DNA from: Amphiscolops sp. MND2022
Taxonomy: Eukaryota
Length of the DNA stretch: 64,000 nucleotides
Assembly (NCBI GenBank): GCA_964187785.1
Contig: OZ076409.1
Coordinates: forward strand, 10,170,001-10,234,000
Direction: 5' to 3'
Shown here: positions 5,101-37,399 of the stretch, piece after piece
Numbering within the stretch: the first letter of the stretch is position 1
Layout of the letters: each line of letters starts with the position of its first letter
Translations under genes and position numbers: made by a program
The notes under the pieces: generated by a model
What the model was told of the DNA's origin: nothing
The model's database searches: none
The model's input: the letters and a program-made list of their open reading frames with translations, nothing else

Positions 5101-6430
5101 CTACACCGACCAGCTATTCCGCATGAGAGCTTCGGTGCAACACTGGTTATACTCAACTCTGATCTATGCATCAGGTCTATTCGTAGGAGTTGACCAGGCT
5201 CAACCTCTTCATCACCCTGACGCGCAACTGCCGCGCGAGAATGCAGGCTTTCCACTGCCACAGCAGTTGGCAGACTTAACACTCGCTGAAGTGCAGGACC
5301 TGGTCCCTGTCATCGCCCCAGTACTGATTCCTATCTTTGGAGCTTTAGGTGTACTGCGCTATCCCATTAAACCCGTCTACATGGCAGTTCAAGTAGCAAC
5401 TGTCTCGATATTTACTTACCTGCAAGGAAGTCCACCCATGTCATATGAGTGCATGATTCAAGAAACCTTGAGCGGTGAGATGCCTCAAGCATACACGACC
5501 ATCATTCGTGCCCGCGCGCGCAAAGCCGCAGAGCTCCCTCGTGAATATGGACCAGTCAACGGGTACAACGCACCAATGGACCTTCATGGACAACCCTTTC
5601 GGTTCCCATGGACCGTGGACTTTATAAAGAAAACTATCAACTCTAGTCTGGATGCAAGTCCCACTGTTCGCTCGGATTTTAGGTTCAAGTTCATCAAGGT
5701 ACCCAACCGCTATTGGAAAGAGAACGTGGGATATCCCCGTGCCCGCCCAATCGCGCGCGGCCAGGAGCTTTTGAACCACCAGCATCGCCACACAGACTCT
5801 GCGAATGTGCCACAATGGATTAGCGTCGCTGCGCAGGTGCGTGACCGCAATCTTTCCCGCCGGATGGCCTCGATACAATATGAGCCGGTCTGGCGTCCGC
5901 AAGGCCGCATGACAATGTCGGGAGATACGCCACTGACGTTGTTGGATATTGTGAATCAAGTGCTGGGCGCAGAAATGCGCGCTGAGTGGGATGACGAATG
6001 TCTCCACTTAGAAGTGACGAATTTCGAAATGTGGAAGAAGGCGTGTACACTATGGAAGCAGAGCGGATGGATTTCAAAACGTGTGGCTCTAGCAGCTCAC
6101 GATCGCGCTGAAGAGGAGCGTGCTCAGCGCTATGCTCCCACACCATCTCAAAACACCGCTGCCCCTAATATGGCCATGTCCTTGGAGCAAACCCTCACCG
6201 TGGAAGCTGCATCCTTGGAAGATGAGGTTACAGTTGAGACAGCTATGCCTGTAGCCCCTAGTCCTTCCGGTGAGCACACGGCAGAGCTTACGCCCAATGC
6301 GGCACTAGCTGACCCCATTGGACAATTAACCATCGACACCGAGGCGTCTACCAGACGCGTATCCACGAGCGATGCCTCACCCCCTAAGGAAACTTCTCCT
6401 CGCAGCAGAAACAGGCCTGCCGCCCAATGA
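2199..6430 (+). pseudogene. Large extra ORF of element A (ORFs 2199-3602 and 3791-6430, probably one disrupted ORF): Ser/Pro-rich N-terminus, SGNH/GDSL-like region, hydrophobic helical C-terminal region
   Basis: A duplicated TGATTGACTACT at 3596/3611 and a TGA near 3707 separate the two long ORFs. VMMDST, RRIIFSNIMD, LFVSLPG and DLRPAALSAHAY fall at SGNH block-like spacing. Confidence 0.45.
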
Positions 6431-7963: not shown

Positions 7964-8470
7964 TATATTGCTGTGAGCAATCAACAGTTGTTTACAAACA
8001 ACACATTTTTATGTGCGGCTATCCTGAGAAAAATCGAACTTAGGATCTCTTACCACATATTGCTGTCACTATCGAATCAATTTTTTTTCATTTGCTTTTT
8101 TGATTTAAAAAAATTCAAACTTCAATAAAATGTTTTTGGTGTTGTGAGGCTGTGAAGAAAGACTGCCATTTTCAAACAGAAGATTGATTAAGCTCACAAA
8201 CTGAAAACAAAACTGTTTTAAAGGTCACGGATGTCAATGAGAAATCATAAGTCAAATTTAGTCCCCACGGAAACAAATTTTTTTTTAGTACTTCTTTTTG
8301 AAACAATGTAAACAGTTATTAAAATTTAAAAAGCTCGAAGGACGAATGTCACTTTTGATTTCTTTATAAAGAAATCGGAACACCTGCTAGCAAGAAAAGT
8401 ACAAAGATTCCATTCATTTTTTTGAATATTCAATCTTAATCATTGTTTTGAACTTGTAAGAACTACAAAA

Positions 8471-9421
8471 ATGAACTTTTATTTCATGCTACATACTTTT
8501 ATCTCCTTCTCGTCATATCTTACAGATACAATAGTTGCGAAATCTTTTCCACAGAAAGTTCTCTCTTCATTTTACCAAGAAAATATAGAAGGAAAATGCT
8601 CGAATTCTTCACGTAGTTTGATCAATACGGAAGTAAAATCAGAGTCCAAATGTGCTGTTTTATGCAACAAAAACAGTAATTGCTTATCCTTTGGAATACG
8701 TATCGTTTTTGGAGGCAAAATATGTCAGTTGTACAGCCAGGATATCTATTCACGGGCACGGGGGGTGAAAATTTTACAGAAAGATACAGAGTGTAAATAT
8801 TTCGGAATGATAAAGGAAAGGAAGCCAATGTGCCAACAAGATGGTGTGTTCGCAGACATACAAAATGATGGCAAAACCAGTGAGAATTGTGCGATGATAC
8901 GTCGAAAGCGAGTTGACAGGGAATGGGGCGAATGGGGATGGAACGAAACCCTAGATGACGGCGGAGTTGATAGAAAAACAATCCAAAGACGACAAATTCT
9001 GATTGACGCAGCACATGGAGGAATAGAAGGCAATGGATCATCCGAGAAGATTGTCAGGTGGATCAAGATTGTGAAACATGAAATGACGTGGGATAAAGCG
9101 AATGAATCTTGTGAGCTTTTGGGTGGTGAACTGTTTCACAGAGTCAATGGAACTCAGCAGCAGTTAGATTTCTTTGTGGATAAAATGGGAAACAAATCAC
9201 ACTGGTTGGGAATCTACACAGACGATCACGTGGTGTGGAAGTCAGTGTTGAATGACGTCATCAAGCCGGAGCTTCTGCTTTGGAAAAGGGGTCAACCAAA
9301 TAATAATGGAGGCGATCAGAATCACGTTGCCAACACTGCACCATGGAATAATGTGCCCACAATTGGGTTGAGTGACAACAACAAGTCGGAGAAAAAGCGA
9401 TTCATTTGTGATATAATATGA
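8471..9421 (+). CDS. Secreted PAN/Apple + C-type lectin domain protein (intronless)
   Basis: Hydrophobic N-terminus; PAN-like CAVLCNKNSNCLSF...CQLY; WGEWGW segment; CTL motifs MTWDKANESCELLGG, HWLGI, WKRGQPNN, FICD. Paralogue at 58991-59911. Confidence 0.85.
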   Translation: MNFYFMLHTFISFSSYLTDTIVAKSFPQKVLSSFYQENIEGKCSNSSRSLINTEVKSESKCAVLCNKNSNCLSFGIRIVFGGKICQLYSQDIYSRARGVKILQKDTECKYFGMIKERKPMCQQDGVFADIQNDGKTSENCAMIRRKRVDREWGEWGWNETLDDGGVDRKTIQRRQILIDAAHGGIEGNGSSEKIVRWIKIVKHEMTWDKANESCELLGGELFHRVNGTQQQLDFFVDKMGNKSHWLGIYTDDHVVWKSVLNDVIKPELLLWKRGQPNNNGGDQNHVANTAPWNNVPTIGLSDNNKSEKKRFICDII

Positions 9422-10065: not shown

Positions 10066-10183
10066 TACTCAATTAGTTTCTTGGCGCCCATAACACCTCG
10101 GAGAGGACTTTTTTAAACGGACCCAAACGGATTTTTGAACCAAACGGATCAAACGGACCCAAATAATTTTAGAGCAAAAAATG
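10066..10183 (+). repeat. 5' piece of unit 1 of a 1312-bp tandem duplication, split by element B
   Basis: Nearly identical to 28795-28912 and continues at 27601. Confidence 0.9.
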
Positions 10184-12444
10184 TGTCACGACCCGCTCCC
10201 GGTCGTAATTTTACTTGCTGCTCTGGAGTACCGGGATTCGGCAGAGGACATGGACAAAGGCAGAGTAAATACTTTTGAACTTTGTTAAACCAACCAAATC
10301 AAAATTCTACTTACAGTACAGTTAAATAAGTACGAATAATTTTCAAATACAGAATCCAACGTAAGCGTTACGGAAGATTTTTCAGAAATGACTTTAAACT
10401 AGCTGAAACTTCCGGTCTAATGTTTTCACACGCACACCGTTTTATTTACGGTTTTATCTTTTGAGTTTTCCATTCCAATCTAAACACTAAATAATTTTGC
10501 AAACAGGATCATTTTGGCGCTCCACACTAAAATGAAAACACAGAAACAACGTTTAACTCCGAGATCCCAACGGAATCCATAAGATCTAAAATGAAAGAGC
10601 ATACAAAAACAGAGCGGAAATGTGTTCCAATATTAAAGTAGTTGTTAAATATCCACTTAAAATCGCAGTCAAGTGATTTTAAGTAAATGTTTACAACGTT
10701 ATGACAGCGTCACTCAACTAGGCTAGTAACGGGTGTTTCTATTTTTACGGACCAATAGCGTCGCTTGCCGGCGGAATTATCTGAGCTCGTACCAATAGAA
10801 TTACGCTTTGTTGCCCCTAGCAACGCTTACCAGCTAAGAAAAGAGAATAGAATCGCGTACGCTCTCCGTTTTCACTCCGCTTGCTACTGCTGCTCAGCTA
10901 TAAGCAATCTTAATACGTACGGAGCACTTACGGAGCGGATTGTAAAATTGTATTCCGCTGTTCAGCTATAGATAATCTTAATATGTACGTAGCATCTACA
11001 GAGCGAATTGTAAAATCGCAAATGAGAAATACTGGTTCAAATGAAATCCAAATTAAGTTTTTTAAATCGATGCGTTTGAAAGATTCAGGAGTTATGATTC
11101 TTATATAAGGAAAATTGTACTGTAAGGAAGGATGATAGAAATTGCAATGGTATTTTTATGTTCTGGATTTGTATCATCATGATAAATCACTAGATCACGT
11201 TGACATTATGCTTTGTTTAGTACTTCCTTAATGGAACAAATCTACTTGGTTTACTATGGCACTTAAAATATCTTAATTATAATCCTGATGCAAGACGTAA
11301 GGTCAACGGTTATTGTGTAAAATGTTGAAGTTGCTTTCCACTTGATACTACAAACATGTTGCGCTCATCTAATTAGCAGTATAACCATTGTTACATTCCG
11401 TTAAAGTCCCGTTTGGACTTGATTTGTGTTCAATATGAATGATGTAGTATGCCATTAGCAGATAATTCATATGTTCGAATTTGGGATTACCGTTTCAGCA
11501 TCGTTTGTTCTTTTATACCAAACTTCCACATTTTTCTTCCGCTTCTAAGTTAACTCATTTCGTATCGATTCCGTCGCCATTTTTGAGTGTCATTCTTTTA
11601 CTTCGAACTTCAATTTCCTAACTTGATTGCTGACTAATTATTCATGCCGGCGTGCCTACGCTGATGAAAATGTCAGCTAGACTTCTATTTTGCCGCAATT
11701 GTGAAGCTCAAACAGGAAATGAATCGGCTGAACGAAAATGATTTCAACAAAGTTTTACGGAACACTGACGCAATTAGGAACTTTGATACCTGATTTTTTG
11801 ACGCGGGACTGAAATAATATAAATCATTAGCGCTTTTTGTTGAACAAAACCGATTTTTGTGATACCTAGGAATTTTTAGGTGAGGAACAAATGATGCTGG
11901 GAAGGTTTAAATATGTAAAACATACTTGTAAATCAGTTAGTTTTTTTGACCTGCTTTGTAATATTTAGTTCTGTTCCGTTATCATAACGTGTTCAAAAGA
12001 AAACCTAAATCTTTGAAGAATTCAACTTTTCCAAAGATACTTTCTCTCTCTCTCTCTCAACCGAAATGACAACTAGAAGCCAGAAAAGGAAAGCCGTAGC
12101 TGAGTTAGTCTCAGGTGATTTCGAAACCTCTATAACCGAAGACTTTCCGCCTGAAAACCTTGTAGCTAGTTCCAGCAAGATTCCTAGGATAGAACCAGAA
12201 GGCTTGGCTGAGATAAAAACGTCACTAAGAAAGGAGATTATGTCTGATCTGACTAAAATACTTGCGGAAAACCAAAAGGAAATGCTTAAACTGATAGCAC
12301 CTTTAAACAAGAAACAAACTGTCCACATGTATGTTCAAGACTCTGACTCTGAAACAGAGAATGTTTCCGTAGCAAGGACGTCTACCCCCGTTAAAACTCA
12401 TACTGCGACTAACTCTAAAACAACACCGATAAATAGTCGTGACA
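10184..12444 (+). repeat. 5' LTR of element B
   Basis: TGTCACGAC...GTCGTGACA. Near-identical to 25206-27595 apart from a deletion of about 120 bp near 11308 and scattered differences. Confidence 0.95.
10810..10824. promoter_or_regulatory. RFX X-box-like palindrome with nearby CCAAT boxes in LTR B
   Basis: GTTGCCCCTAGCAAC, with CCAAT at about 10752 and 10792. The diverged LTR B2 keeps GTTGCTAGTGGCAAC at 34974-34988. Confidence 0.5.
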
Positions 12445-13397
12445 TGGTGACAGGAGTCCTCAATGACTCTACCAATCAACCCACGAAAAGATCGAAACAA
12501 CAACGCGCATCCAACGAGCAAACAAAAGACCGTCCTTCAACATCTAAAATACTGTTCGCGCCACAACCGCAAACATTTCCAGCTACCAACCTACTTCCGA
12601 TGCCGAAAGCACTCACTGCTTCGCTTCCAGTCTTTGATGGTAAGTCCGAAAAGTTTGAACTTTTTGAGGACCTATTCCGAAATAATATCAAAATGTACTC
12701 TCACCTAACTGAGATACAAAAGATCAACTACTTTCATTCACTCCTACGAGGAAACGCGCTACAAGCGTATTGCAATCTAGATGACACTAAAAAAGACAAC
12801 CTAGAAGGAGTCATAACGGCATTTAAACGTCGCTTTGGCGATTTCCAATCATCAGCTAAAGCGAGATGCGAGTGGAACGCGCTGCATTTTGATCCCACCA
12901 AACAGAAACTCCATGAATTCCTTGACAACCTGCAAAAAACTGCAAAAGAAGCATTCGGCTCAGAAGCACAAAGTTTCATTGATAAAGCAAACTACGCCAA
13001 AATGCCGGATCACGTCAAGAAGATCCTCAACAGAGCATATTTGGAAGATAAGCCCTATAATGACATAGTTTTGCATCTTGAGAGGGAAATGAGACTAAAC
13101 GGACTAGGCGCGCCTGACGAAACAACCCTAGTCCCACTCAACATAGTGGACGCCGTAGTGACGGACGATAAAAAAGACCAACAACAACAAGGTCATTGCT
13201 TTCACTGTGGCAAATATGGCCACTACAAAGCACAGTGTTGCAGACTCCAACGAGAACGTTACAATATCGCCAAAACAACCACAAAAGACCCAGCCCAAAA
13301 CGAAGCACCCAAACCCAAGTGTGATACATGTGGCAAGATGCACAAAACTGAGAACTGCTGGAACGTACCCACACTGTTCCCCCAGCCAAAAAACTGA
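12066..13397 (+). CDS. gag: Gag of element B (starts inside the 5' LTR; capsid-like region and two zinc knuckles)
   Basis: LPVFDGKSEKFELFEDLF capsid-like motif; CFHCGKYGHYKAQC and CDTCGKMHKTENC knuckles. Confidence 0.9.
   Translation: MTTRSQKRKAVAELVSGDFETSITEDFPPENLVASSSKIPRIEPEGLAEIKTSLRKEIMSDLTKILAENQKEMLKLIAPLNKKQTVHMYVQDSDSETENVSVARTSTPVKTHTATNSKTTPINSRDMVTGVLNDSTNQPTKRSKQQRASNEQTKDRPSTSKILFAPQPQTFPATNLLPMPKALTASLPVFDGKSEKFELFEDLFRNNIKMYSHLTEIQKINYFHSLLRGNALQAYCNLDDTKKDNLEGVITAFKRRFGDFQSSAKARCEWNALHFDPTKQKLHEFLDNLQKTAKEAFGSEAQSFIDKANYAKMPDHVKKILNRAYLEDKPYNDIVLHLEREMRLNGLGAPDETTLVPLNIVDAVVTDDKKDQQQQGHCFHCGKYGHYKAQCCRLQRERYNIAKTTTKDPAQNEAPKPKCDTCGKMHKTENCWNVPTLFPQPKN
12445..12457 (+). other. 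Primer binding site (tRNA-Leu-like)
   Basis: TGGTGACAGGAGT directly after the LTR CA. The same 12-mer follows the 5' LTR of element C. The tRNA identity is from resemblance to TGGTGTCAGGAGT. Confidence 0.75.
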
Positions 13398-13464
13398 AAT
13401 CGCCGCGCCTACGATTTGGGGGAAAAGTAGAGGCGAGGGCGTACACGATAGAGGACCCCCCAAA
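13388..13464 (+). promoter_or_regulatory. -1 programmed ribosomal frameshift signal (A AAA AAC plus predicted H-type pseudoknot)
   Basis: Slippery heptamer 13388-13394 sits just before the gag TGA. A 6-nt spacer precedes a GC stem (13401-13412 with 13427-13441), and loop TTTGGGGG pairs with CCCCCAAA (13457-13464). The -1 frame is open into pol. Confidence 0.8.
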
Positions 13465-16400
13465 CAGGTATGAGGAAGATTTTTTAACCGAATGTAATGA
13501 AGAACCAACTCAAGACTGGCAACGCCGTTGGAACGTAGGCATGATACTCAGGCATAACGCCAGACACCCAGACGATCCAACGCCACTACCCCAGTGGATA
13601 ACGGAGTCACCCGATAACTATGCGACACTCAAAAGACCGTTGCCGGAATCAAAAACAGACCGAATTTATATATATGACAGAGACTACAGATGTGACCCTT
13701 GGGATGAACCAACTATCTACGATACAAATAAACTATCCTTCAAAATCCAAGTCTCAAACCCTCAAGCTCAACCCACAGGGATTACAAACCTACCATCACC
13801 GCCGTCACCGATCGTGAAAAGAACAACACCTTCCCCAACAGTACCCGTCACCATCACGTCCACACCAATAGACGCAGAGAACATCATCTGCATTGAAGAT
13901 AAAACAATATGGGCACACCAAGAAAGAAGAAAACGAGAGAATGCTGACCCTCCAGTAACACCTCCAAAAACCGCACCCGTCACAGCACTGACGAACGACG
14001 ACGTAGAAATCACGGAATGTCCCTCAAAACTGCCTGAAGACCTAGATGCCATCAAAGAATTCATCCAACATGACAAAGACGACGACTACATTCCGTTAAT
14101 GTCTGCCATCGCTCTCAAGAAGAAAAAACGAATGCTTTTCCTACCAATCGAATTCAACACAGTCAAAATCGACGCTTTAGTCGACTCAGGTGCGTACATT
14201 AACGCTATTAGTGAAAGGGACGCCGAAAAACTCCGACAGCAAGCAAGTCAGTGCATCGTCAATAAAGCACCCCCACCCCCTTTCAAAGTGCAGTATGCCA
14301 ATGCTGAATTAGAAAAACCACTCGCCACGTACACCCTACGTTTCAAAATAGGGGACTACACCTTTGAAGAAACATTCATCATCATGAATCAAACGTCATT
14401 CCCCATAATCGGATTAGCGTTCCTACGTAAACATGCCGCAATTCTCGACACTGCACAAGGAACCATCGACTTCCCTAAAATCCAAATCACGATGGCGCTC
14501 ACAGATGAAAGACAAAAGTGCAATCCCAAGCCCATCACAATAAAAACCGAAGCCAAGCATACAATTCCAGCGCACTCTACCCGAATCATCTACGCAACAA
14601 TCCCTGTGAGTATCGAACACTCAATAACTGGCACAATACAACCTTTACCACAATTTGACGAATGCGCGAAGGTAATAGTGGCCCCAGCAATTACCACAGC
14701 CAGAGAAAAAAAGGTACCAATTAAAATTGCCAATACCACGGATTTCCCATACACAATAGCTACTGACACCAAAATAGCCGAACTACAGATCCTAAAACCC
14801 GAAGAAACGAAGATGATCCGTCCAGTCGACATAGCCGCCCTCAACCTCCTCACTGACCATGACGATGTGGTCACGTACATTAATGCACTAATGCAAGTAG
14901 AGCGGCCCGAAGACAATGAAGAGAAATTCTGGTTTCCGACTCCAGAACACCCAGGCAACGAACAAGAACATTCGCCCATACAAAAGCGAATCTTGAAAGA
15001 ACTGCGAGACCTTGCCGAACTAGAAAAACTTGATCCAACCGAAAACGAAGAGTCTCGCAACAAATTCCTATCCATGTTCAAATGGACCGATTCACTGATT
15101 GCGGGCAAAGACCGTGAAAACCTTGAGGACACCATCGTGGAATTCAACGACATCTTCGCCCGACACCGGCTAGAGATCGGGATGAACACACAATTCAAAG
15201 TCAGCCTAACACCACAAGATGACAAACCAGTCTACACACAGAGCCTACCGGTTCCCATCAACCTCAAAGAAGACCTAACTGTGGAACTGGCCCTCATGCA
15301 CCGATACGGTATCATCACGACACTCCCCTTCTCCAAGTACGCCAGTCCTATATTTGCACAGCGGAAACCCAACGGCAAGCTGAGACTGCTGGTGGACCTG
15401 CGCAAAATCAACGCACTCATCGCAGATGACTACATCAACAACAACCACCCTGTAAGCACCCTCTCAGACGCGGCACAACACCTAGCAGGGAAAAAACTAT
15501 TTTGCAAGCTTGACTGCTCCCAGGCGTACCACTGCCTCCAAATGGCAGATCAAAGGTCAGTAGAATTACTTGCTTTCATATTTGCTAGTAGGACGTTCGC
15601 CTACCGTCGCCTGGCACAAAGACTCAGCAGAGCTCTATCAGCTTTTTCGAGCTTTATGCGTGAGTATCTGGATTCAGTCATCAAAGCAGACCAATGTGCA
15701 CAATATGTAGATGACATTGGTATCGCCGCAAACACAACGGAACAGCTCATAAAGAACATCAGAGCAGTCTTCAAGTGCATTAGAAAGGCAGGACTAAAAC
15801 TAACCATCGAAAAATGTCACTTTGGAGTAACCCAAATCGAATTTCTTGGCCGAACCATCACCCCCGACGGAGTAGCCCCGCAAGATCAAAAGGTCAAAAA
15901 TTTCCTCTCCAAAGTCCGCTTCCCCAAATCCAAAAAACAAGTTCAGAAATACATTGGCTTTGTAACTATTACCGCAATTACATACCGCGCTTGTCAGAAA
16001 AACTCATCGGCATGTACGAACTTCTCAAAGCAGACTCCAAGATCAGAATTTCAGAAGAACTTGTCGATAACTTTAAAGAAATTAACGCCAGTTTAGCGGA
16101 AGCTTGTGGACTCGCACTCCGACAGCCCATAGCAGGAAAACAGTACGTTCTAATGACGGATGCAAGCTTTCGTGCATCAGGCTACGACCTCATGATTGAG
16201 GAGAACGACGAACGCAAAATACTCTCCAAACGAAAAACCTTCGCACCAGTAGCGTTCGGATCACGAGTTTTTTCACCTGCACAACTGAAAATGTCCATCT
16301 ACTGCAAGGAATTCTTAGCAATCTACCATGCCTTCCTCGAATACAGCCACATACTATGGGAAACAACAATTCCAACGCTGGTCTTAACAGACAACCGCTC

Positions 16401-18684
16401 AGTAACTAGATTCTTCCAGACGAAAACGACACCCCCTGCACTCTGGAACGCCTGTGACTATGTATTACAATTCAAGTTCCGAATTATGCACGTAGCAGGC
16501 TCCCAAAACACGGCAGCAGATTTTCTCTCAAGACTTGAACTTACACCGAAAGAAAAGGTACAACTTAAACTACGAGACGTCATCCTAACGTCCCCAATTG
16601 AAGTTAATCTACAATCATCAGATGTAGCTGACGAGGAACAACTTTTCTTTCTACCAGACGAAGAAGATGAATCTGAACAAGAAATCTTTGCCCGAAAAGC
16701 ACTCAGCAAGCGGCGTGCCCTAGACGAACATGAGAGAGAACTATCAACAAAAGTAACCGAAGTCATCAAGATACCACTCAACTCCGCAGTCTACTCCTTC
16801 GGTGCAATTAAGGAAAATGCACGGATCAGAAACGAACAAGATGCAGACCCTCTCCTCAAAGCACTGAAACAACGGATCTCACACGAAAAATATGACAAAC
16901 ACCTTCTCAAAACTGAACCACGAGGACGAAACCTATTACGCCACGAAGAAAGAATCATAATGAAAGATGGAGTTCTGATACGAAAATACTACGGAGAAGA
17001 CGGATCAGTCACCCATAACCAAATTATAATTCCAAAACACCTAGTTCCAGAACTCTTGTCCACTCTACATGGAAAAACAAATAAACACCCATGAATCACC
17101 AAAATGATACAAGAATGCAGAGCGAAATACTACTTCCCGGGTCTTGCACGCAAAATCAGAGCTTGGGTAACCAGTTGTCAGGATTGCATTGCCAATAAAA
17201 GAATCGAAGCGAGACAGATACGTCCCAAAATGCTAAGCAACACTGAATTCACAATGGGACCAGAAGACTGCCTAGAAGTAGACATCCTACCAAATCTACC
17301 TTCCTCAAATGGATACCAACACATCATAACGATGATGGATGTTTTTTCGCGTTTCCTTTTCGGTTACCCGACTCAGGATATGACAGCAAAAACAGTCGCA
17401 CGATGCATAATAGACGTCATGACACGACACTGTTATCTACCGACCGTCATTCTAACGGATAAAGGATCACAATTCAGGTCAGAAGTAGTCAACCAAATAG
17501 CACAAACACTGGATATACGGATAAGCCACGCATCGACGAAACACGCCCAAACAATTGGCATCCTAGAAAGGACTCATGCCTCTTTGAAAACCTCCCAAAA
17601 GATATCAACGGGAGAACGACGCTCTATGTGGCACAAATACGTCCAGATTGCAGTCATGAATTACAATACAAGCTACTATGAAAACCTAGGCTGCGAACCT
17701 ACAACAGTGTTTCACGGACGCATTCCGTACAACATTTTGGACATAAAACTTGGATTGAAACCTAACTGGGAAAAAGATAGCAACGAAGAACTAACGGATC
17801 AATTACAGAAACAAATAGCCGAAATACACCACGCTGCCATAGAGAACCTAATGCAGTCTTACCTTAAATACAAACAGTACTATGACAAGAAAGCAACGGC
17901 TACCCCGCTCAAGGTCAACGACTACTGCTACGTCCTTAATCCGAAAGCAGACAACCAGTCGATGAAATTCGCCTTTAAAGATTGCATTTGGACTGGACCC
18001 TACAGAGTAGTCAAAGTACTCTCGAACAACAACTACGTCGTACGTCGCACGGGAATTAGGTATACTCAAACCCTCCATAGAATTCGCCTAAGGCTATATG
18101 CGCCCAATCAGCGAGTACCTGACGTAACAGTCAGAAGGGAAGATTACCTTCCAGACCCAGAGGTTAAAACAACCCTCAATGATTGGTACGCGCAAGCTTG
18201 GGAAACCGAATTCGGAGAAGTTCTGTTCGGAAATGCCACTGAAAACGCCCCTGAAGAAGCTACAGTTACAGAAATCGCGGACACAACAGGAAACGCCGAA
18301 AGCACAATGGAAAATGATGTGGTTAAAACAGCCACAAACGAAATTACAACGGAAATTGAAGTGGTTAAAACAACCACAGGCGAAACTACAATGGAAAATG
18401 ACGTGGTTCAAACAGCCACAAATGAAAACACTGAAGGAGATAGAACACCCTCTGACAACGTCACGTTATCCGACCTAGATATCATCAATAATTCATATAT
18501 TTTGACCCCACCACCGATACAAAGCCCTCCCAAAACTCCCGAATTGCCACCTATCGTCGTTGGATATAATCCTAGAAAAGTGGGAAGATACAACCTGAGA
18601 CCTAATCCTAAATCTAATGCGAATCCTGACTTTAGAATGCTTGACTCAGTTACTACGGAGAACTTACGGTCAACTCAGAACTAG
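13394..18684 (+). pseudogene. pol: Pol of element B: aspartic protease, dUTPase-like spacer, RT, RNase H, integrase with GPY motif; disrupted
   Basis: LVDSGA; KLDCSQAY and YVDD; TDAS and DFLSR; HHCC, EVD/TDKGSQF/LER and GPY. A 1-nt deletion near 15963 and an in-frame TGA at 17092-17094 (HP*ITKM) disrupt it. Confidence 0.95.
18304..18430 (+). repeat. Three in-frame 42-bp repeats in the integrase tail
   Basis: TMENDVVKTATNEI / TTEIEVVKTTTGET / TMENDVVQTATNE. Confidence 0.75.
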
Positions 18685-18900
18685 ATGAAAAATCAGCATA
18701 CCAAACCGAACCGGAATGGCTACGTCAAATTTTACTTGGATCTTCCAAACTACATAAATACTACGGATACTAGACGTACCTCGACAAAATACATATCAAT
18801 CATCAAGATCAAAAGTACATGAGGCTCTATCAATAAGCAGTCAGAATTTACAATTTAATGCTTGGTAGCTTTCTTCAGTTTATGAAGCACTTCAGGATCT

Positions 18901-21900
18901 TTATCTTGACGTTGAGAGTTTTTCTTCTTCCGAGACGTTTCCGACGTTTTTTCTTTTGAAGAACCTACTGTCCCTTTCTTCTGAATTACTGTACCCACGA
19001 CCAGACGCTTTACTCTCAGAGCGAACGCGAGGCAAACGATTAGCCACATTACAGGCACTGTACTCTGCATCGAAAGCCTTACGGCGTTCATTCAAAAATG
19101 TGTTGTACAGAGTCACAAACCGTGCAGCAAAGGCATCTTTATCGGTTTTACAGAAGTTCTTCCATAGATCGTACCCTGAAGTCACAAAGAAGACGCCAGA
19201 ATCAGCCACAGCCCGCCGAACAGCTCTAACGGTCTGATCACTAAACAAACGCTGAGGCGAATACCCCGCACACAAAACGTAGGACTGAACAAGGCGTAAA
19301 CAGTCCTGGAAACTTCGAGCCTCCAAGGCGCTGCCACTTAGATCAAATGTTACCACAGGATACTTGACTGCAGGCATCCTCACGAATAGACAACAAAGTT
19401 TGAACACCCGAAGCAACCGATGCCGCGCCTGGAAGCCAAACTCTAACAATAGATGCTGCACCACATCCGTCACTCCACTAGCAGACTGCCCAGAACTCAG
19501 ATGAGTCTTTCGCCTCCCCACAACGTAGCTAGTGTATTCCTCTACAGCGGCTTTAGAAACATCAGTTGGAATAACGCCACAAGTCTCCAACACTTTACAC
19601 AAACCAGCAAATAACGCAAACGCAGTAGTGTCGTCTCCCTCCAGCATCAACTCTGGACAAAAGCTGTATAAACCTTTACTGATGGCAGATGTCGCACTAG
19701 TAGTCTTCAACAGCAGCAAAATCAGACGGTCAATAAACTCACGACACCGCAAACGAAACGTCTCAAATTCACTCGTCTTCCCTTCTGACAAAAACTTCCC
19801 GAATTCATACTTCATCGAGAAATCGTTAATAGAGATATGGGGGAAGGCACTAACTGCAGTCACGTCCATATATTCTTCCACTCAACAATACCAGGAAGAA
19901 GTTTCGACACTCGTGTCTTTAATAGGAGGCAGTAGACGAAGTTACAAAGTTCATTGTACGCATGGAACGCGTAATCACTTCGACCCTGCTCCAAATTCTC
20001 AAAGTTGATATCGTCTAAAACAGCACAGAAGACTTACGAACACTACTATAAGAACCCCAACACAAGCGGACAATCACGGACAGAGCAGTCAAAGCAGAAC
20101 AAAATACAACAGTACACCCAGTCAAACACAGTCAACAAAACTCAAAACCCAAACCAAACTCACAGGTATCGAGAATGAAACGTAACAGTCTGAATCGATA
20201 CACAATCAAATTGTCGGCCACCAGCAACCAATCTGTCCCCTGCATCTAGAAATACAACGTAAAATGATAACAAAGAACAGCTAAACCGACATCCCGCCGC
20301 CAGACGAAGAGGAAAAAGAGAAAAGAAAAAAAGAAGAAAGAAGCAAAAGGAAGACAAAGAAATGAAAATTACAAACACTAACCCTGTCAGATAACTCCTT
20401 AGCTTCAGGTTTTCCGGTGCAGCGATTATAAGGCCGAATGGAAGGCAGAAAGATCTATCAAGTCCGTTAGTACAGCACACAAATCACAGAAGTCAACGTA
20501 ACTTTGCCGCACACACTTCCGCAGAACGACCTTGTTTTCCGTCCATGCCTCGTAAAGGGCACTTTTCAAACGATGCAGAGTATAGTCCACAAGTGTCGTT
20601 ATCTCAACCATACCAAAAACGTCTTGATGGGCTTGACGCACACATTGCAGAAGGATTCCGCTATTGAACGACTGACAGACCACAAATCGCTTGCCGTCAA
20701 CACGGCTGTCGCTCAACACACGCAACAAAGACGGACTGGCCCCGACTACTGACACAGGCAGTTTCTCATCCTCCATACAGCATACGAATCGGGACAAGGG
20801 TGTAAGCTCAGAGTAAGGCATAGGCTGCTCTAGTGGCTCACAGCCGATGCACACTTTTTTGAGATACCCATCCTCCCAGAAGACAACGAAGCAACTTTCT
20901 TCCTCCGTGTCCTTCTCGTACTGGATGGCGTAGGCACCGAAGGCAGATGCACCACTCAAGGTCGCACGCAACACTCGCGGAGCAACACCTTGACACACGA
21001 AGGCCTACAAAAATAAAAACAGATGCAAAGAAGATCCAAAGGACACCCCAACACCAATACACTACACTGACCCTATCCAAATACAATTACAAAACCAAGG
21101 AGGGAAATACAAAACAAGGAAGCATACTCACTGCAGTCTCAGAGCGACTCCACTTCAAAGTAAACTCTGGCTCCCGTTCGCCCAACGTAGCCAAGAAGTG
21201 ACCCCACAGTCGTTGAACCAGTCACAGAAGCATGAAACAAGAGTAATAAAAGGCACTTTTGAATCAACCTTTGCATGCTTGGGCAACAAATCTTCTGGGA
21301 AAGGAAACTCAGGGCCCAGATCAACAAAGGGGCGGGAACGGAAATCATCCTCCTGACGGCTAGAGAGAGTCATCGGTTCCATCAACTTATTATAGATCGG
21401 CAGACCCATATGCAGGCGGTAAACCACATCCTGTTCTCAATGTTTCTTGGATTCGTAACGACGAATGATCTCCGACGAGCCATGGGACCCCATCTTTACG
21501 TCGCGTTTACAGACCCGACAGAAGAAAAAGTCGCCACTACCACGCTTTGCACCAGTAACAAAATCTTTAAATAAGGGATTCAAAGACAACATCCGCCGGT
21601 GGAGTTGATTACGACTGCTGTACTTCTTTTTCGGCCGCTCCAACCGACTTCCCACTTTCTCCACAAGGTCATTGAACCCTACAACACGCAGAATGAAGTA
21701 CGCCCAAAAACAAACGTATAACACCCGGATAAACGCAGATATCAACTAGACCACACACAATTCCCGAAGTACCAACAGAGTTAGAAAGAAACCACTACAC
21801 AACTAACCTGACTGTAAATGGTATTTGGTCCGTGCCTCAACTTCAGCCATCAAGTGCTGTCCAAACCGTTTCATCTCAGGAGAAACTGAAAACTTCATCC

Positions 21901-22715
21901 CAGTCGACGGACCCGGCTCGTCATCCTGACCACTAACACCCTGCTGAACAGTCCCTGAACTGTCTTCTTTGCGTCGTTTACGAGGGGTTTCAAAACGCAC
22001 GTTTGTCTTCCGGAAAGGAAAGACAGTTGCACCTACAAAACCACACAAATATGGTAATTACCACGGTATCACGTATATACAACGCACCACAAGACCTTTA
22101 AACATTACCTCCTGCCTGTCTCTCGAAACCATCACTTTCTTCTCCTTCTGAGGAGGGGGCACCAGCCTCACCTACTTGAGGCTCCGAAGTTAATGCAAGA
22201 CCAGCCGAGAATATGCAGGATAACTCAGGGAGGACAGGACTCGAAGCCCCAATAACCGCAGGAGTAACGGTTTCTACCACAGAGAACCCAGGGAATGAAG
22301 TTGATTGTGCACTAGTAACAAGACAAAGAGAAGAAGTAGCATGATCAGCGGCATCAAGAACTGGAGCGGTGGAAGAGACCAAAGCTGGCATCTCAGCATT
22401 GACGAGGACAACCTCATCCCTTCGGAATTACGGCAGCAACAGCCAAAGAATTGTCAGGTTGAGTTACTGAAAATCAAGATCTGGATTCAGACGCGTCAGA
22501 GTTACGGGTAAGACTAAACTGGCTGATCACCAAAAACAATAGTCCTAATACCCATGGAAGTCAGAAAGATTTTACCAACCTGAGGAAGTAACTGCAACCT
22601 CCACCTCCGAATGGAAGACGTCATCGTCAGTAAAACAGAAGTTTGTTTCATTACCGCTAACAAACCCAGTTTTGGGAGCAGGAGTGAGAGGAGGGAGATC
22701 AGAATCTTCATCCAT
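18901..22715 (-). pseudogene. Spliced antisense cargo gene of element B: zinc finger + hAT-transposase-like region
   Basis: GT-AG introns at 22033-22108, 21679-21807, 21005-21131, 20246-20382 and 20015-20163 join the minus-strand ORF pieces. Zinc finger is CRVC...SKKH. Homologous along its length to the antisense gene of element C. A few stops and frameshifts are present, and the 5' exon is uncertain. Confidence 0.75.
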
Positions 22716-23000
22716 AACCAATACTTGTTCTCAAAAGAAATCTAAAACAAAAACAACAATCAGGAAAGGAAAGAATTACGCTATGCGAACGTAAATACCC
22801 TAAAGGAAAATTAACAACGTCATCCCTACGTAATTGGAAAAATCATCTAATCTTCAACTTCAGTGAAAGACTATTATGGCATTGATGGAAACAAAACGTC
22901 TCCGAAATATCCTACAGGTGAACAAAGTCACCAAGAAATCCTGAAGAAAGATGCCATTTTGAAAATTACGGAATATGAACGTAGAATATTCGAGAAGAAA

Positions 23001-23024
23001 TCAATGACGTCATGACGTCATTGA
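23001..23024. promoter_or_regulatory. Perfect 24-bp palindrome with two tandem CRE (TGACGTCA) sites; copy at 24147-24170
   Basis: TCAATGACGTCATGACGTCATTGA lies between the divergent antisense gene and ORF3. Confidence 0.65.
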
Positions 23025-23312
23025 CCGAGAAAGAAACGAAACGTAAAATTAGAAACTATTTCCTATAAGTTTCGACTAATCACAGCGCAGTTGGCAAAGC
23101 TTTCCTTTCCCAGCTCAAGACGCACCGAAACGAAGGCGGAAAAACCGACCAATAGAATTTCGACAAAAATTATGAAGGAAAGAACTCGAAACGTTCATTT
23201 GTCGTCCAAATCTTCAGCTTGACCAGCTCAACGCATAGAAATTTCAAATCTATTCAAGTTTTCCTGCAACTCAGAACCTGAAAATTGTCGCGAAAACTTT
23301 CCGATAAACAAA

Positions 23313-23891
23313 ATGAACAGCTACTCTTTAGTCATCGATATATCTTCTGATGAAGAAAACGCAAAAACGAGCACACCACTGAAAACTCTACCGCTCAACA
23401 TGATCGGCTCACTAAGTGATTCATCAATCGAAGTTTATCGCGGAAGCGATGTGGAACTGGTTTCCACTTCCGAGTCACCCGAAACGGCACCGACGCCTAA
23501 GAAGAAAAGAAAAACTGGGAGAGTCACGTTCAATCTACCAGCAGCTGACTCTGACACGGACTACTACGAAGAGCCAGACTCCCCGCAACGCTTACCTTCC
23601 CCAATAAAACGTACTCCTGTTCCAAAGGAGGCGGAAAATTTCCCTGTTCTGGGGAATGAAAGAATACCAAATGCGGCAAGATTGAACGACCTGAATGAGC
23701 CTTCCTTGGCGGAATTGGAAACCCTATACGGCTTGGATTTAGAGGACCGGAACTACCTCGCATCCTTAGGCCGTGGACGCGGACGCTACGCAACAAATAT
23801 AAATCAGCCGCACTTGAAAGAAAATCTGCGTCCTAACATCATAAATAGAATCTTCATCCATAACCAATTCTTGTCCTCAAAAGAAATCTAA
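23313..23891 (+). CDS. Accessory ORF3 of element B, first copy, truncated by the duplication junction
   Basis: VIDISSDEE, PKKKRK, GRGRGR; homologue at 63043-63917. Confidence 0.6.
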   Translation: MNSYSLVIDISSDEENAKTSTPLKTLPLNMIGSLSDSSIEVYRGSDVELVSTSESPETAPTPKKKRKTGRVTFNLPAADSDTDYYEEPDSPQRLPSPIKRTPVPKEAENFPVLGNERIPNAARLNDLNEPSLAELETLYGLDLEDRNYLASLGRGRGRYATNINQPHLKENLRPNIINRIFIHNQFLSSKEI

Positions 23892-24458
23892 AACAAAAAC
23901 AACAATCAGGAAAGGAAAGAATTACGCTATGCGAACGTAAATACCCTAAAGGAAAATTAACAACGTCATCCCTACGAAATTGGAAAAATCATCTAATCTT
24001 CAACTTCAGTGAAAGACTATTATGGCATTGATGGAAACAAAACGTCTCCGACATATCCTACAGGTGAACAAAGTCACCAAGAAATCCTGAAGAAAGATGC
24101 CATTTTGAAAATTACGGAATATGAACGTAGAATATTCGAGAAGAAATCAATGACGTCATGACGTCATTGACCGAGAAAGAAACGAAACGTAAAATTAGAA
24201 ACTATTTCCTATAAGTTTCGACTAATCACAGCGCAGTTGGCAAAGCTTTCCTTTCCCAGCTCAAGACGCACCGAAACGAAGGCGGAAAAACCGACCAATA
24301 GAATTTCGACGAAAATTATGAAGGAAAGAACTCGAAACGTTCATTTGTCGTCCAAATCTTCAGCTTGACCAGCTCAACGCATAGAAATTTCAAATCTATT
24401 CAAGTTTTCCTGCAAGTCAGAACCTGAAAATTGTCGCGAAAACTTTCCGATAAACAAA

Positions 24459-25299
24459 ATGAACAGCTACTCTTTAGTCATCGATATATCTTCTGATGAA
24501 GAAGTCGCAAAAACGAGCACACCACTGAAAACTCTACCACTCAACATGATTGGCTCACTAAGTGATTCATCAATCGAAGTTTATCGCGGAAGCGATGTGG
24601 AACTGGTTTCCACTTCCGATACACCCGAAACGGCACCGACGCCTAAGAAGAAAAGAAAAACTGGGAGAGTCACGTTCAATCTACCAGCAGCTGACTCTGA
24701 CACGGACTACTACGAAGAGCCAGACTCCCCGCAACGCTTACCTTCCCCAATAAAACGTACTCCTGTTCCAAAGGAGACGGAAAATTTCCCTGTTCTGGGG
24801 AATGAAAGAATACCAAATGCGGCAAGATTGAACGACCTGAATGAGCCTTCCTTGTCGGAATTGGAAACCCTATACGGCTTGGATTTAGAGGACCGGAACT
24901 ACCTCGCATCCTTAGGCCGTGGACGCGGACGCTACGCAACAAATATAAATCAGCCGCACTTAAATAAAATCTGCGTCCTAACATCATAAATAGACCCCCG
25001 AGTGCTGTCCGGAGGAAGTAGAGCGACTAGAGAAGGAAGTCCGTGAGCTGGACGAAGAAGAAAGGAAGATTAGAGACATGAAGTCGGGAAGAGGACGTGG
25101 CCCCCTCCAATCAAGAAAATACAATGGTCGCCCCCCCCGTGACAATAAAGAAAGAAATCCCGCACTGCCACGCTTTACCCCTGTCACTCTCATCAAGAGG
25201 GGCCCTGTCACGACCCGCTCCCGTCGTAATTTTACTTGCTGCTCTGGAGTACCGGGATTCGGCAGAGGACATGGACAAAGGCAGAATAAATACTTTTGA
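24459..25299 (+). pseudogene. Accessory ORF3 of element B, full-length copy running across the PPT into the 3' LTR; frameshifted
   Basis: ORFs 24459-24989 and 25078-25299 join if two 1-nt deletions (about 24962 and 24995) are corrected. Colinear with the element E homologue (PPECCPEEVERLEK vs PPEISPEEMQYLEK). Confidence 0.65.
25195..25205 (+). other. Polypurine tract of element B
   Basis: AAGAGGGGCCC abuts the LTR TG; the same sequence is in element E at 63138-63148. Confidence 0.65.
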
Positions 25300-27595
25300 A
25301 CTTTGTTAAACCAACCAAATCAAACTTCTACTTACAGTACAGTTAAATAAGTGCGAATAATTTTCAAATACAGAATCCAACGTAAGCGTTACGGAAGGTT
25401 TTTCAGAAGTGACTTTAAACTAGCTGAACCTTCCGGTCTAATGTTTTCACACGCAACACCGTTTTATTTCCGGTTTTATCTTCTGAGTTTTCCATTCCAA
25501 TCTAAACACTAAATAATTTTGCAAACGGGATCATTTTGGCGCTCCACACTAAAATGAAAACACAGAAACAACGTTTAACTCCGAGATCCCAACGGAGTCC
25601 ATAAGATCTAAAATGAAAGAGCATACAAAAACAGAGCGGAAATGTATTCCAATATTAAAGTAGTTGTTAAATATCCACTTAAAATCGCAGTCAAGTGATT
25701 TTAAGTAAGTGTTTACAACGTTATGACAGCGTCACTCAACTAGGCTAGTAACGGGTGTTTCTGTTTTTACGGACCAATAGCGTCGCTTGCCGGCGGAATT
25801 ATCTGATCTCGTACCAATAGAATTACGCTTGGTTGCCCCTAGCAACGCTTACCAGCTAAGTAAAGAGAATAGAATCGCCTACGCTCTCCGTTTTCACTCC
25901 GCTTGCTACTGCTGCTCAGCTATAAGCAATCTTAATACGTACGGAGCACTTACGGAGCGGATTGTAAAATTGTATTCCGCTGTTCAGCTATAGATAATCT
26001 TAATATGTACGTAGCATCTACAGAGCGAATTGTAAAATCGCAAATGAGAAATACTGGTTCAAATGAAATCCAAATGAAGTTTTTTAAATCGATGCGTTTG
26101 AAAGATTCAAGAGTTATGATTCTTATATAAGGAAAACTGTACTGTAAGGAAGGATGATAGAAATTGCAATGGTATTATTATGTTCTGGATTTGTATCATC
26201 ATGATAAATCACTAGATCACGTTGACATTATGCTTTGTTTAGTACTTCCTTAATGGAACAAATCTACTTGGTTTACTATGGCACTTAAAATATCTTAATA
26301 ATAATCCTAATGCAAGACGTAAGGTCAACGCTAATTCCTTATTTTCAAGTCAGTAATAACAGTTGTATTTTGTCATGACAACAATCAGGCTAATGACCAA
26401 ACTATGATTATGTTTTGACCCAAACTATGATTATGTTCTGACAAATTTCACGGTTATTGTGTAAAATGTTGAAGTTGCTTTCCACTTGATACTACAAATA
26501 TGTTGCGCTCATCTAATTAGCAGTATAACCATTGTTACATTCCGTTAAAGTCCCGTTTGGACTTAATTTGTATTCAATATGAATGATGTAGTATGCCATT
26601 AGCAGATAATTCATATGTTCGAATTTGGGATTACCGTTTCAGCATCGTTTGTTCTTTTATACCAAATTTCCACATTTTTCTTCCGCTTCTAAGTTAACTC
26701 ATTTCGTATCGATTCCGTCGCCATTTTTGAGTGTCATTCTTTTACTTCGAACTTCAATTTCCTAACTTGATTGCTGACTAATTATTCATGCCGGCGTGCC
26801 TACGCTGATGAAAATGTCAGCTAGACTTCTATTTTGCCGCAATTGTGAAGCTCAAACAGGAAATGAATCGCCTGAACGAAAATGATTTCAACAAAGTTTT
26901 ACGGAACACTGACGCAACTAGGAATTTTGATACCTGATTTTTTGACGCGGGGCTGAAATAATATAAATCATTAGCGCTTTTTGTTGAACAAAACCGATTT
27001 TTGTGATACCTAGGAATTTTTAGGTGAGGAACAAATGATGCTGGGAAGGTTTAAATATGTAAAACATACATGTAAATCAGTTAGTTTTTTTGACCTGCTT
27101 TGTAATATTTAGTTCTGTTCCGTTATCATAACGTGTTCAAAAGAAAACTTAAATCTTTGAAGAATTCAACTTTTCCAAAGATACTTTCTCTCTCTCTCTC
27201 AACCGAAATGACAACTAGAAGCCAGAAAAGGAAAGCCGTAGCTGAGTTAGTCTCAGGTGATTTCGAAACCTCTATAACCGAAAACTTTCCGCCTGAAAAC
27301 CTTGTAGCTAGTTCCAGCAAGATTCCTAGGATAGAACCAGAAGGCTTGGCTGAGATAAAAACGTCACTAAGAAAGGAGATTATGTCGATTATGTCTGATC
27401 TGACTAAAATACTTGCGGAAAACCAAAAGGAAATGCTTAAACTGATAGCACCTTTAAACAAGAAACAAACTGTCCACATGTATGTTCAAGACTCTGACTC
27501 TGAAACAGAGAATGTTTCCGTAGCAAGGACGTCTACCCCCGTTAAAACTCATACTGCGACTAACTCTAAAACAACACCGATAAATAGTCGTAACA
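25206..27595 (+). repeat. 3' LTR of element B
   Basis: TGTCACGAC...GTCGTAACA followed by TSD AAATG. Confidence 0.95.
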
Positions 27596-27606
27596 AAATG
27601 TTATAA
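27208..27606 (+). CDS. LTR-encoded Gag N-terminus reading out into flanking DNA
   Basis: Near-identical to Gag residues 1 to about 126 (plus a 3-residue duplication), ending ...SRNKML* in the flank. Confidence 0.55.
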   Translation: MTTRSQKRKAVAELVSGDFETSITENFPPENLVASSSKIPRIEPEGLAEIKTSLRKEIMSIMSDLTKILAENQKEMLKLIAPLNKKQTVHMYVQDSDSETENVSVARTSTPVKTHTATNSKTTPINSRNKML

Positions 27607-34580: not shown

Positions 34581-35291
34581 GAGCATCTTTTTAGCATCAT
34601 CACATTGCACCTATACGACTGTCCTCCTTGTCTTAACCTGCATCACGACTTTTCTAATCATATCTAGCAAGACAGAAAATATACGGTACGATATGACTTT
34701 ATTGCTGTAAGATTCTAATTATTCCGAAATGATTCCGTGCAAATCAAAATTTATCATAGCGAACTAGAGTAACCCCGACCTTACAATCTGCCCCGTAAGC
34801 ACTCCGTACAAATGAAGATTGGCCATAGCTGAGCAGCGGAGCACAATTTTAATAACTGCTCCGAACCTGCTCGGTACGTATTAAGATTGACTATAGCTGA
34901 GCGGCAGAGGCTGACGGAGAGAAAAAGCGGAGAACGTAGGCGAATTCATTCTCTTCTCTGTTACTTAGCTGGTGTTGCTAGTGGCAACTGAGTATGATTT
35001 TATTGGTTTGAGTTCAAAAGGGACAACTCTATTGGTCCGTAAGAATAGAAACACCAGTTACTTGCTTAGTTAAGTGACGCTGTGAATGCTCGCTTAAATC
35101 ACTTGGCTAATATTCGAGTGGGTTTTGACAGCTACTCCAGTAATGGAAGACAATTCCACTATACTATATTCTATGTTGCTTTCATTTGAGATTGTATTAA
35201 TTCCGTTGGGACCGGGGAGTTAAATATCATTTTTAATGTTTCGTTTTAGTGTGGAGAAGAAAAGAATGGTCCCAATATTAAAATTATTCTC

Positions 35292-36219
35292 TGTAACGGC
35301 TGCTTGCCCTTATCCTGCGCTGAGGCTTGACAAACATTACGCCGCCCTGATCCGTTGCATAAGACTGTGGACAGTTACTGAACAAATCCTGGTTTTTTTT
35401 GTTCAAAGGACTGTATCTTGTGGCTGGTGGGTCCGATGTGACCCGTAGGAGTCTCATGCGAACCCTCTTTCCACTCGTTTGGATCCGATGTGGTCCGTAA
35501 CACACTTCCCTAACTGTATCTTCACGCGCTGCGGCTGTCTAACTATGAGAGTAGCTACTTAGTCGCTCTGATTCTAGCGAAAAGTTGTGAAGATTGAGAA
35601 GTTGGTTAATTAGTCTCTTGGTCCTAAGAGCCAACTTGACTATAGCTACTCAGTAGAGAAAATCTCTATATAATAATGGTATACATATCGTTTACAATTC
35701 TACAGTAAATATAAGCAATTACAGGTAAGTATAAATAAATGACATTCAAGTGAATTATTGGCTATGTAATCAAACTATGTGGTGGTTTTGGCATGTTGGT
35801 TAGGTGGGCTAGAAAGTATGTTTACACAATGTAAATATCATTAATTTCAACAGAGTTGCTTTCCCTTCAAGGTCATATGAGAAAATCACATAATAATTAG
35901 TACATCAAAATTGGGTTTTCATGGGTTCCGACATAGGTCACTTTGGGTGGTAATTGCTCGGAACCCAGGGGTGATACGAGGTAGGGTGGTTCGAGTGGAA
36001 AGTTGAGTTAGCAACTCTAGTATATACATTCTAAGTTTCAGGATGACTGCATTAGCTTCTCAAAAAGGGGGGTGGTGTTTTTGCCTGCATCACCTATTTT
36101 GGTTAAAATCGTAATTTTCCAACTAGAATCCTGATGAGATTTCTAAGTGTTTTGAGTTATAAGTTTCATCAGTCACGTTCAAATTTAGTTTCTGATCTCG
36201 CAATTGACTGGCGCCAACA
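35292..36219 (-). repeat. Bel/Pao 3' LTR, outer copy
   Basis: TGTAAC...CCAACA on the plus strand; matches 36424-37350 and the split 5' LTR. Confidence 0.9.
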
Positions 36220-36423
36220 TTGCCGGTACTGTTTTTCTCCCGAAAAACACTTTCATAGAACATGGGTGCCAGCTTCACTACTGGTCTTTTGAGTTTTCTA
36301 TTAATTGTATTAATTGTATCTCATTGTATTAATTCCGTTGGGACCGGGGAGTTAAATATCATTTTTAATGTTTCGTTTTAGTGTGGAGAAGAAAAGAATG
36401 GTCCCAATATTAAAATTATTCTC

Positions 36424-37350
36424 TGTAACGGCTGCTTGCCCTTATCCTGCGCTGAGGCTTGACAAACATTACGCCGCCCTGATCCGTTGCATAAGACTGT
36501 GGACAGTTACTGAACAAATCCTGGTTTTTTTTGTTCAAAGGACTGTATCTTGTGGCTGGTGGGTCCGATGTGACCCGTAGGAGTCTCATGCGATCCCTCT
36601 TTCCACTCGTTTGGATCCGATGTGGTCCGTAACACACTTCCCTAACTGTATCTTCACGCGCTGCGGCTGTCTAATTATGAGAGTAGCTACTTAGTCGCTC
36701 TGATTCTAGCGAAAAGTTGTGAAGATTGAGAAGTTGGTTAATTAGTCTCTTGGTCCTAAGAGCCAACTTGACTATAGCTACTCAGTAGAGAAAATCTCTA
36801 TATAATAATGGTATACATATCGTTTACAATTCTACAGTAAATATAAGCAATTACAGGTAAGTATAAATAAATGACATTCAAGTGAATTATTGGCTATGTA
36901 AGCAAACTATGTGGTGGTTTTGGCATGTTGGTTAGGTGGGCTAGAAAGTATGTTTACACAATGTAAATATCATTAATTTCAACAGAGTTGCTTTCCCTTC
37001 AAGGTCATATGAGAAAATCACATAATAATTAGTACATCAAAATTGGGTTTTCATGGGTTCCGACATAGGTCACTTTGGGTGTTAATTGCTCGGAACCCAG
37101 GGGTGATACGAGGTAGGGTGGTTCGAGTGGAAAGTTGAGTTAGCAACTCTAGTATATACATTCTAAGTTTCAGGATGACTGCATTAGCTTCTCAAAAAGG
37201 GGGTGGTGTTTTTGCCTGCATCACCTATTTTGGTTAAAATCGTAATTTTCCAACTAGAATCCTGATGAGATTTCTAAGTGTTTTGAGTTATAAGTTTCAT
37301 CAGTCACGTTCAAATTTAGTTTCTGATCTCGCAATTGACTGGCGCCAACA
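36424..37350 (-). repeat. Bel/Pao 3' LTR, inner copy
   Basis: Duplicate of 35292-36219, adjoining the integrase 3' end. Confidence 0.9.
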
Positions 37351-37399
37351 TTGCCGGTACTGTTTTTCTCCCGAAAAACACTTTCATAGAACATGGGTG

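Follow-up and report, generated by a model that had tools for sequence, protein, structure and literature searches.

A putative hAT-derived, nuclease-dead protein encoded antisense in a clade of Ty3/Gypsy retrotransposons

The aORF-3R genes of LTR retrotransposons, including maize Grande gene23, rice RIRE2 and Retand TRP28, have the same position and reverse orientation as the gene described here and occur in nearly all copies; they are also credited with an own promoter and a proposed DNA-binding regulatory role (PMC7264820, PMC11963269). They are either of unknown origin or carry a short TRP28 (PF04195) domain (PMC7264820, PMC11963269), and a 2020 review called both the origin and the function of antisense accessory ORFs unknown (PMC7264820). 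TnpA of Spm, MUG and FAR1 are non-cutting regulators derived from transposases, and VANC is an accessory protein of VANDAL elements; TnpA and VANC are kept by the element and activate its own copies, and transposases and their non-catalytic derivatives can activate cognate elements, as described in a recent preprint (bioRxiv 10.64898/2026.08.24.746577). These proteins serve DNA transposons or the host, and the words 'retrotransposon' and 'LTR' are absent from that preprint. The hAT architecture is reused for regulation in the ZBED genes, which are host loci that keep the DDE triad (PMC3606216). Bdelloid LTR retrotransposons have captured accessory genes after pol and carry a dUTPase, rare among retrotransposons, within pol; their ORF3s encode env-like, GDSL or DEDDy proteins, and 'transposase' does not occur in that paper (PMC5408684). 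Among active hAT enzymes, Hermes has the essential residues D180, D248, R318, W319 and E572 (PMC6027215), the His of the CxxH motif is essential, and the zinc finger gives DNA specificity in Kat1 (PMC4763223).

We analysed a window of 64,000 nucleotides, the whole stretch of DNA under study, from a eukaryotic genome of 1.07 Gb. It harbours a 17.4-kb Ty3/Gypsy retrotransposon (element A, 10184-27595) with the following sense-strand parts.

10184-12444, plus strand: 5′ LTR of element A (TG...CA), 98% identical to the 3′ LTR
12009-13397, plus strand: gag ORF, stop to stop (Pfam DUF1759, E 4e-9; Retrotrans_gag, E 0.008)
13352-18684, plus strand: pol, with protease, dUTPase-like segment, RT, RNase H and integrase (Pfam)
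22716-23312, no strand: gap between head-to-head genes, likely internal promoter
23313-23891, plus strand: second accessory ORF, 192 aa, acidic, with VIDISSDEE near the N-terminus
25206-27595, plus strand: 3′ LTR of element A, from the LTR pair comparison

The LTRs, the PBS TGGTGACAGGAG directly after the 5′ LTR, gag, the PR-RT-RH-IN order and a short target duplication (AAATG, 5 bp, at 10179-10183 and 27596-27600) identify the carrier as Ty3/Gypsy; pol of the window copy is split across three frames. Whole elements show 5-bp target duplications of the integrase type, and hAT transposons make 8-bp target duplications. The dUTPase-like segment lies at ~14550-14790, between protease and RT (Pfam E 0.035). 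Elsewhere in the window, an inverted copy of the LTR of element A (93% identical) is found at 60756-63291, and two related, intronless PAN and C-type lectin ORFs at 8426-9421 and 58778-59911 are 68% alike across a stretch of 544 bp. GC-richer DNA at 2178-6430 contains two long plus-strand ORFs, of 474 and 906 aa, that have no Pfam match. The region 35191-44331, with tandem 1.1-kb repeats and a minus-strand DUF1759 ORF (41405-42181), is probably another LTR element.

Between integrase and the 3′ LTR, element A carries an antisense gene of seven predicted coding exons that runs from ~22715 to 18901 on the minus strand, and the limits of 19300 to 21540 given in the sequence-only reading are too short.

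22580-22715, minus strand: predicted exon 1, ATG at 22715, with a putative splice end
22109-22466, minus strand: predicted exon 2, low-complexity N-terminal region, acceptor at 22466 or 22513
21808-22032, minus strand: predicted exon 3, basic cluster PRKRRK, from conserved blocks of aligned copies
21132-21678, minus strand: predicted exon 4, broken in the window; encodes the CCHH zinc finger (21440-21520) and a helical stretch ahead of the core
20383-21004, minus strand: predicted exon 5, RNase H-like core, from the model of a relative and motifs
20164-20245, minus strand: predicted exon 6, 82 nt, part of a helical insertion domain, from aligned copies
18901-20014, minus strand: predicted exon 7, insertion domain, C-terminal helix and basic tail, from aligned copies and motifs

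These exons and introns are predicted from splice signals. Among the 23 copies that could be aligned out of 30 fetched (7 fragmentary loci were dropped), conserved blocks alternate with variable ones, and the GT/AG dinucleotides at nine junctions are kept in 21-23 of the 23. A stretch homologous to exon 1 is present in all nine family-1 elements examined, at 37-69% identity, and the PRKRRK cluster of exon 3 is a possible nuclear signal. Because the splice dinucleotides are kept, the exon phases are mutually compatible and dN/dS is 0.07-0.16, the antisense gene is taken to be more than a chance product. The window copy itself is a pseudogene, in which a stop falls in frame just past the finger, one finger His is substituted and four exons contain frameshifts; many of its relatives have open exons.

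The protein motifs named in the sequence-only reading are found on the minus strand in the order it gave, except that (W)P.I..Y falls in another frame in the window copy.

20915-20932, minus strand: YAIQYE
20876-20893, minus strand: CFVVFW
20843-20857, minus strand: KVCIG
20450-20470, minus strand: LTDLIDL
19708-19746, minus strand: CREFIDRLILLLL
19654-19665, minus strand: SFCP
19525-19542, minus strand: EEYTSY
19387-19416, minus strand: LLRVFKLCCL

DE[ST]TD and ERxFS, which the same reading had reported missing, are indeed absent from the minus strand of the window and from all 95 family rows; in the comparison set of true hAT rows they occur in 39/69 and 63/69, respectively. The place of the hAT ERxFS is occupied by the C-terminal helix of exon 7 (19276-19320).

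An AlphaFold model of a natural single-frame relative from family 4 (L161, 719 aa), built on 95 aligned rows of natural frames and exons, reached pLDDT 84.2 and pTM 0.72; window exons match the modelled protein directly, with E-values of 8e-13 and 1e-11 (22% and 28% identity). The predicted fold, tied in this way to the window exons, is an RNase H-like core with a large helical insertion, as in Hermes. The Foldseek comparison returned the Hermes hAT transposase in all top ten PDB rows, the best with E 1.2e-4 (prob 1.00, TM 0.35 by query, rmsd 12.5) and the next unrelated row with E 0.12; TM-scores of the model to Hermes were 0.30-0.36 by query. VIA, run on 48,161 chains, gave Hermes a Z of 13.3 (462 residues aligned, rmsd 10.3, model residues 3-654 on chain residues 23-609), followed by the ISCth4 transposase at Z 6.2. 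The sole BFVD match below 0.001 is a hAT protein, and ESM Atlas neighbours bear hAT Pfams with scores of 0.80-0.85, which have the value of leads only.

The proposed match to hAT transposases thus holds for structure, where Hermes is the sole clear match, but not for sequence profiles. Pfam assigned no family to the antisense protein, and no PF05699, in the window ORFs and intact exons, and PDB sequence and HMM searches with the protein gave nothing relevant. HMMER searches of family profiles against the hAT ORFs of the window's genome were not significant, and HHalign against 17 in-genome hAT rows (Ac-type) and 69 DUF4371-type hATs gave probabilities below 2%. A PF14291 search of the genome gave no signal anywhere, with its controls silent as well, and is uninformative; a model of the last exon alone from the window's own family had no Foldseek match and no useful ESM Atlas lead. 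Judged by the predicted structure, the antisense protein is very probably derived from a hAT transposase. The particular ZNF862 affinity suggested in the sequence-only reading stays a conjecture, the hAT alignments compared by HHalign being of Ac and DUF4371 type.

The antisense protein shares with Hermes (PDB 4d1q, 8edg) the predicted whole-length fold, the N-terminal CCHH finger, a core split by a helical insertion, and LKS-x5-W and ILDNW-like segments. It differs in having only ~10-11% identity and in missing D-D-E, CxxH, the RW Arg, ERxFS and PF05699, and its gene lies inside a retrotransposon, where a simple scan of the flanks found no terminal repeats. It is built like a hAT transposase but lacks the marks of an active one. 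The finger motif, C-x2-C-x15-17-H-x4-6-H, is present in 86/100 loci and its CCHH ligands are invariant in the family alignment; as for its assignment to the BED/TTF class, Pfam gave no match and the VIA end points start at Hermes residue 23. By position the gene belongs to the class of antisense extra ORFs, and it is set apart from aORF-3R by its predicted full-length hAT fold, its predicted introns and the absence of a TRP28/PF04195 Pfam match. Unlike the ZBED genes, it is mobile, present in hundreds of copies and, by the mapping given below, devoid of the triad.

The catalytic positions were mapped from the strands of the model, the Hermes sequence and a colinear HHalign alignment whose E of 0.22 makes it a guide to register only. 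In the window this mapping places them as follows.

20915-20917, minus strand: D180 equivalent, Glu
20741-20743, minus strand: D248 equivalent, Gly
20657-20668, minus strand: CxxH equivalent, replaced
20543-20548, minus strand: R318/W319 equivalents, Ala/Trp

Across the families, the D180 equivalent at the end of strand 1 is Glu, Gln, Asn or a small residue, with Asp in a single read of 129, and the family of that read has Gly at the D248 equivalent. The latter, at the end of strand 4, is mostly Gly, with Asp in 14/135 reads: families 1, 2, 3 and 6 have Gly in every read, and families 4 and 5 have Asp or Asn. No family keeps both aspartates. In the RW motif the Trp is invariant (45/45 rows) and the Arg is never found (0/127 reads); as the counterpart of Hermes W319, this invariant Trp325 replaced a Phe near residue 343 that was considered first. 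The putative CxxH position reads F/Y-x-x-E/D in most rows, with an acidic residue in place of the His in 37/45. Three registers are possible for E572, and five candidate columns hold no invariant Glu; a nearby Glu is found in family 2 at one column (10/10) and in family 5 at another (11/20). The earlier suggestion that the triad is dead thus agrees with the inspected positions, no family examined having an intact triad under a mapping made without superposition, and the antisense protein is in all likelihood nuclease-dead.

The window contains a second member of the family, in a Gypsy element at ~44330-56295 (element B).

48627-52405, minus strand: family 2 homolog, ~20% identity, broken (finger 51496-51525, core to 50563, last exon 49122-49826)

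Genome searches, in which the best candidates were scored and all counts are lower bounds, revealed at least seven lineages of the antisense gene that are mutually ~20% identical. When loci of 10 kb are chosen by the antisense gene, 96 of 100 show integrase or RT downstream on the other strand, none has pol on the same strand, and four have neither integrase nor RT within the stretch. When the choice is made by integrase instead, three exons of the antisense gene are present in 19 of 20 loci; the remaining element, L259, has no trace of it within 5.5 kb. From the finger to the end, family 4 has a single open frame and the other lineages bear introns; this frame (L143-L162) would reflect loss or gain of introns within the gene. 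Parts of the gene are internally repeated in tandem in L067, L096, L155 and L166, and head-to-tail arrays of at least three elements, ~14-16 kb apart, occur at C9:54.62-54.66 Mb, C13:16.51-16.55 Mb and C10:2.57-2.60 Mb. Database matches to the antisense protein (43 and 118) all lie in ENA assemblies and are without names or Pfam domains. A search with representatives gave 2134 matches at E 0.001 or better; one of them matches the window's genome at just 28-37%, and related elements are therefore likely to exist in other species.

Codon-level comparisons indicate purifying selection, with dN/dS of 0.07-0.16 for the antisense gene and 0.03-0.04 for integrase; these values rest on 2-8 unsaturated pairs per set, with none for one set, the saturated majority having been dropped. 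The finger is the most conserved region and the RNase H-like core among the least: core versus finger conservation is 0.67 versus 0.88 in family 4, 0.62 versus 0.83 in family 5, and 0.18 versus 0.29 between families. Family 1 is the exception, with 0.62 for the finger and 0.53-0.65 for the remainder. Distances in the integrase and antisense-protein trees correlate (Mantel rho 0.73, 56 of the 100 loci having both), all seven lineages are clades in both trees, and so are the groupings 1+4, 6a+6b and 2+3+5 (SH-aLRT at least 94). Of the 35 supported splits, 15 conflict with the integrase tree, and every listed conflict falls within a lineage. The data fit a single ancient capture, vertical descent, and faster change or swapping of the cassette. 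The co-option by a retrotransposon proposed from the letters is supported by this co-divergence, together with the strict linkage (96/100 and 19/20) and the purifying selection.

We propose that a complete hAT transposase gene was captured, in reverse orientation, by an ancestor of the Gypsy clade and has been kept since then as an accessory gene; its product is predicted to preserve the hAT fold and the finger but not the cutting residues. The reverse orientation would let the introns outlast reverse transcription. It would also require the gene to have its own promoter, which may lie between 22716 and 23312 and is probably shared with the small acidic ORF on the sense strand. The protein would be nuclear and bind DNA through its finger. 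Acting in trans, it would activate cognate copies or relieve their silencing, in the manner of TnpA or VANC; it likely binds the element's own DNA, sustaining transcription. DNA binding is the likeliest retained activity because the finger is the best-kept module and the Kat1 finger gives DNA specificity (PMC4763223), and a positive role is favoured because transposase derivatives can activate cognate elements and because a positive factor is what a selfish element would profit from most. Against this stands the source of the precedent, plants and DNA transposons; the carrier here is a Gypsy element, of class I, whose integrase is unrelated. A scan of 12 LTR sequences gave no 7-mer above simulation and no candidate binding site. 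Taken together, our analysis leans towards a positive DNA-binding regulator.

The small acidic ORF bears on a different route to the same end. In 10/10 other elements (L223-L241) it directly precedes the 3′ LTR, head-to-head with the antisense gene, and encodes 166-365 aa; a hydrophobic-then-acidic motif is found near its N-terminus in seven of the ten. This motif resembles a SUMO-interacting motif (SIM). In element A the ORF is duplicated at 24459-24989, within a 1146-bp tandem duplication (98.6%; 22701-24994) that doubles the putative promoter together with the ORF. Two overlapping TGACGTCA palindromes (starts 23005 and 23013, within 23005-23020) lie in the head-to-head gap; they recur in 4/12 regions, of families 1 and 3 (L223, L233 and L235 besides the window), and were rejected as a general family signal, being absent from the sampled families 2, 4, 5 and 6. 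The antisense protein might counter silencing mainly through protein contacts rather than DNA binding, as a decoy or scaffold and possibly with the acidic ORF product. Its evolution at ~3.7 times the rate of integrase, the well-conserved helical insertion domain and the SIM-like head-to-head partner would all suit such a role, but the finger is the part best kept between families, and we regard contacts of this kind as an unlikely main function.

A dead transposase could instead assist integration or nuclear import by tethering the integrase complex to host DNA or chromatin. The antisense gene accompanies integrase in all lineages, its protein has a conserved finger and basic clusters, and antisense ORFs have been suggested to act in nuclear import (PMC7264820). 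Integrases that are 94-97% identical nevertheless go with antisense proteins that are only 47-75% identical, and this mismatch, with the 15/35 conflicting splits, is better explained by cassette swapping than by a tight integrase interface, which leaves a tether rather improbable.

A negative role, in which the protein or a convergent antisense transcript limits copy number, draws on the convergence of the antisense gene with pol and on the regulation by antisense dsRNA discussed for such ORFs (PMC7264820). The selection at codon level and the fold point to a protein that matters, and the carriers are young and numerous (LTR pairs 96-100% identical); copy-number control is accordingly judged quite improbable.

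The active site might instead have been rearranged, the protein still being a nuclease or an enzyme that binds RNA or metal. The first position has the isosteric residues Glu, Gln or Asn, families 4 and 5 show Asp or Asn at the second, an acidic residue stands at the CxxH His and the Trp is invariant. These features are compatible with an altered enzyme, but both aspartates coincide in no family, four families have Gly at the second position and the core is the fastest-changing part, all of which makes retained catalysis very improbable. The broken window copy and the commonness of nested insertions could suggest a passenger, a nested hAT insertion decaying inside the retrotransposon, but this has next to no probability. 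Selection (dN/dS 0.07-0.16), linkage to integrase (19/20 integrase-picked elements) and the shared clades contradict it, and many copies have open frames at ~20% between-family identity. Scanned in a simple way, the flanks of the window copy gave one 10-mer only and no terminal repeats.

The preferred reading, a positive DNA-binding regulator derived from a hAT transposase, would give an antisense accessory ORF a traceable origin. Hosts and DNA transposons are both known to domesticate transposases; in this case an element of one class seems to have recruited the enzyme of the other and to have retained it for a long time. A survey of the literature on antisense and extra ORFs of LTR elements, covering the titles and abstract openings of mainly open-access papers, yielded no LTR element with a gene derived from a hAT transposase. 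Comparable cases elsewhere could escape notice because the family is invisible to Pfam and no named protein was among the database matches checked. The many young, intact and divergent versions in this genome allow a direct trial of a dead transposase as a self-activator or anti-silencer. A bolder and more doubtful possibility is that the clade turned a hAT enzyme into a sequence-specific anti-silencer, paired it head-to-head with a small SUMO-binding-like acidic protein and swapped the cassette between lineages in an arms race; if this were true, the anti-silencing cassette and the arms race with host silencing would explain the expansion of the clade.
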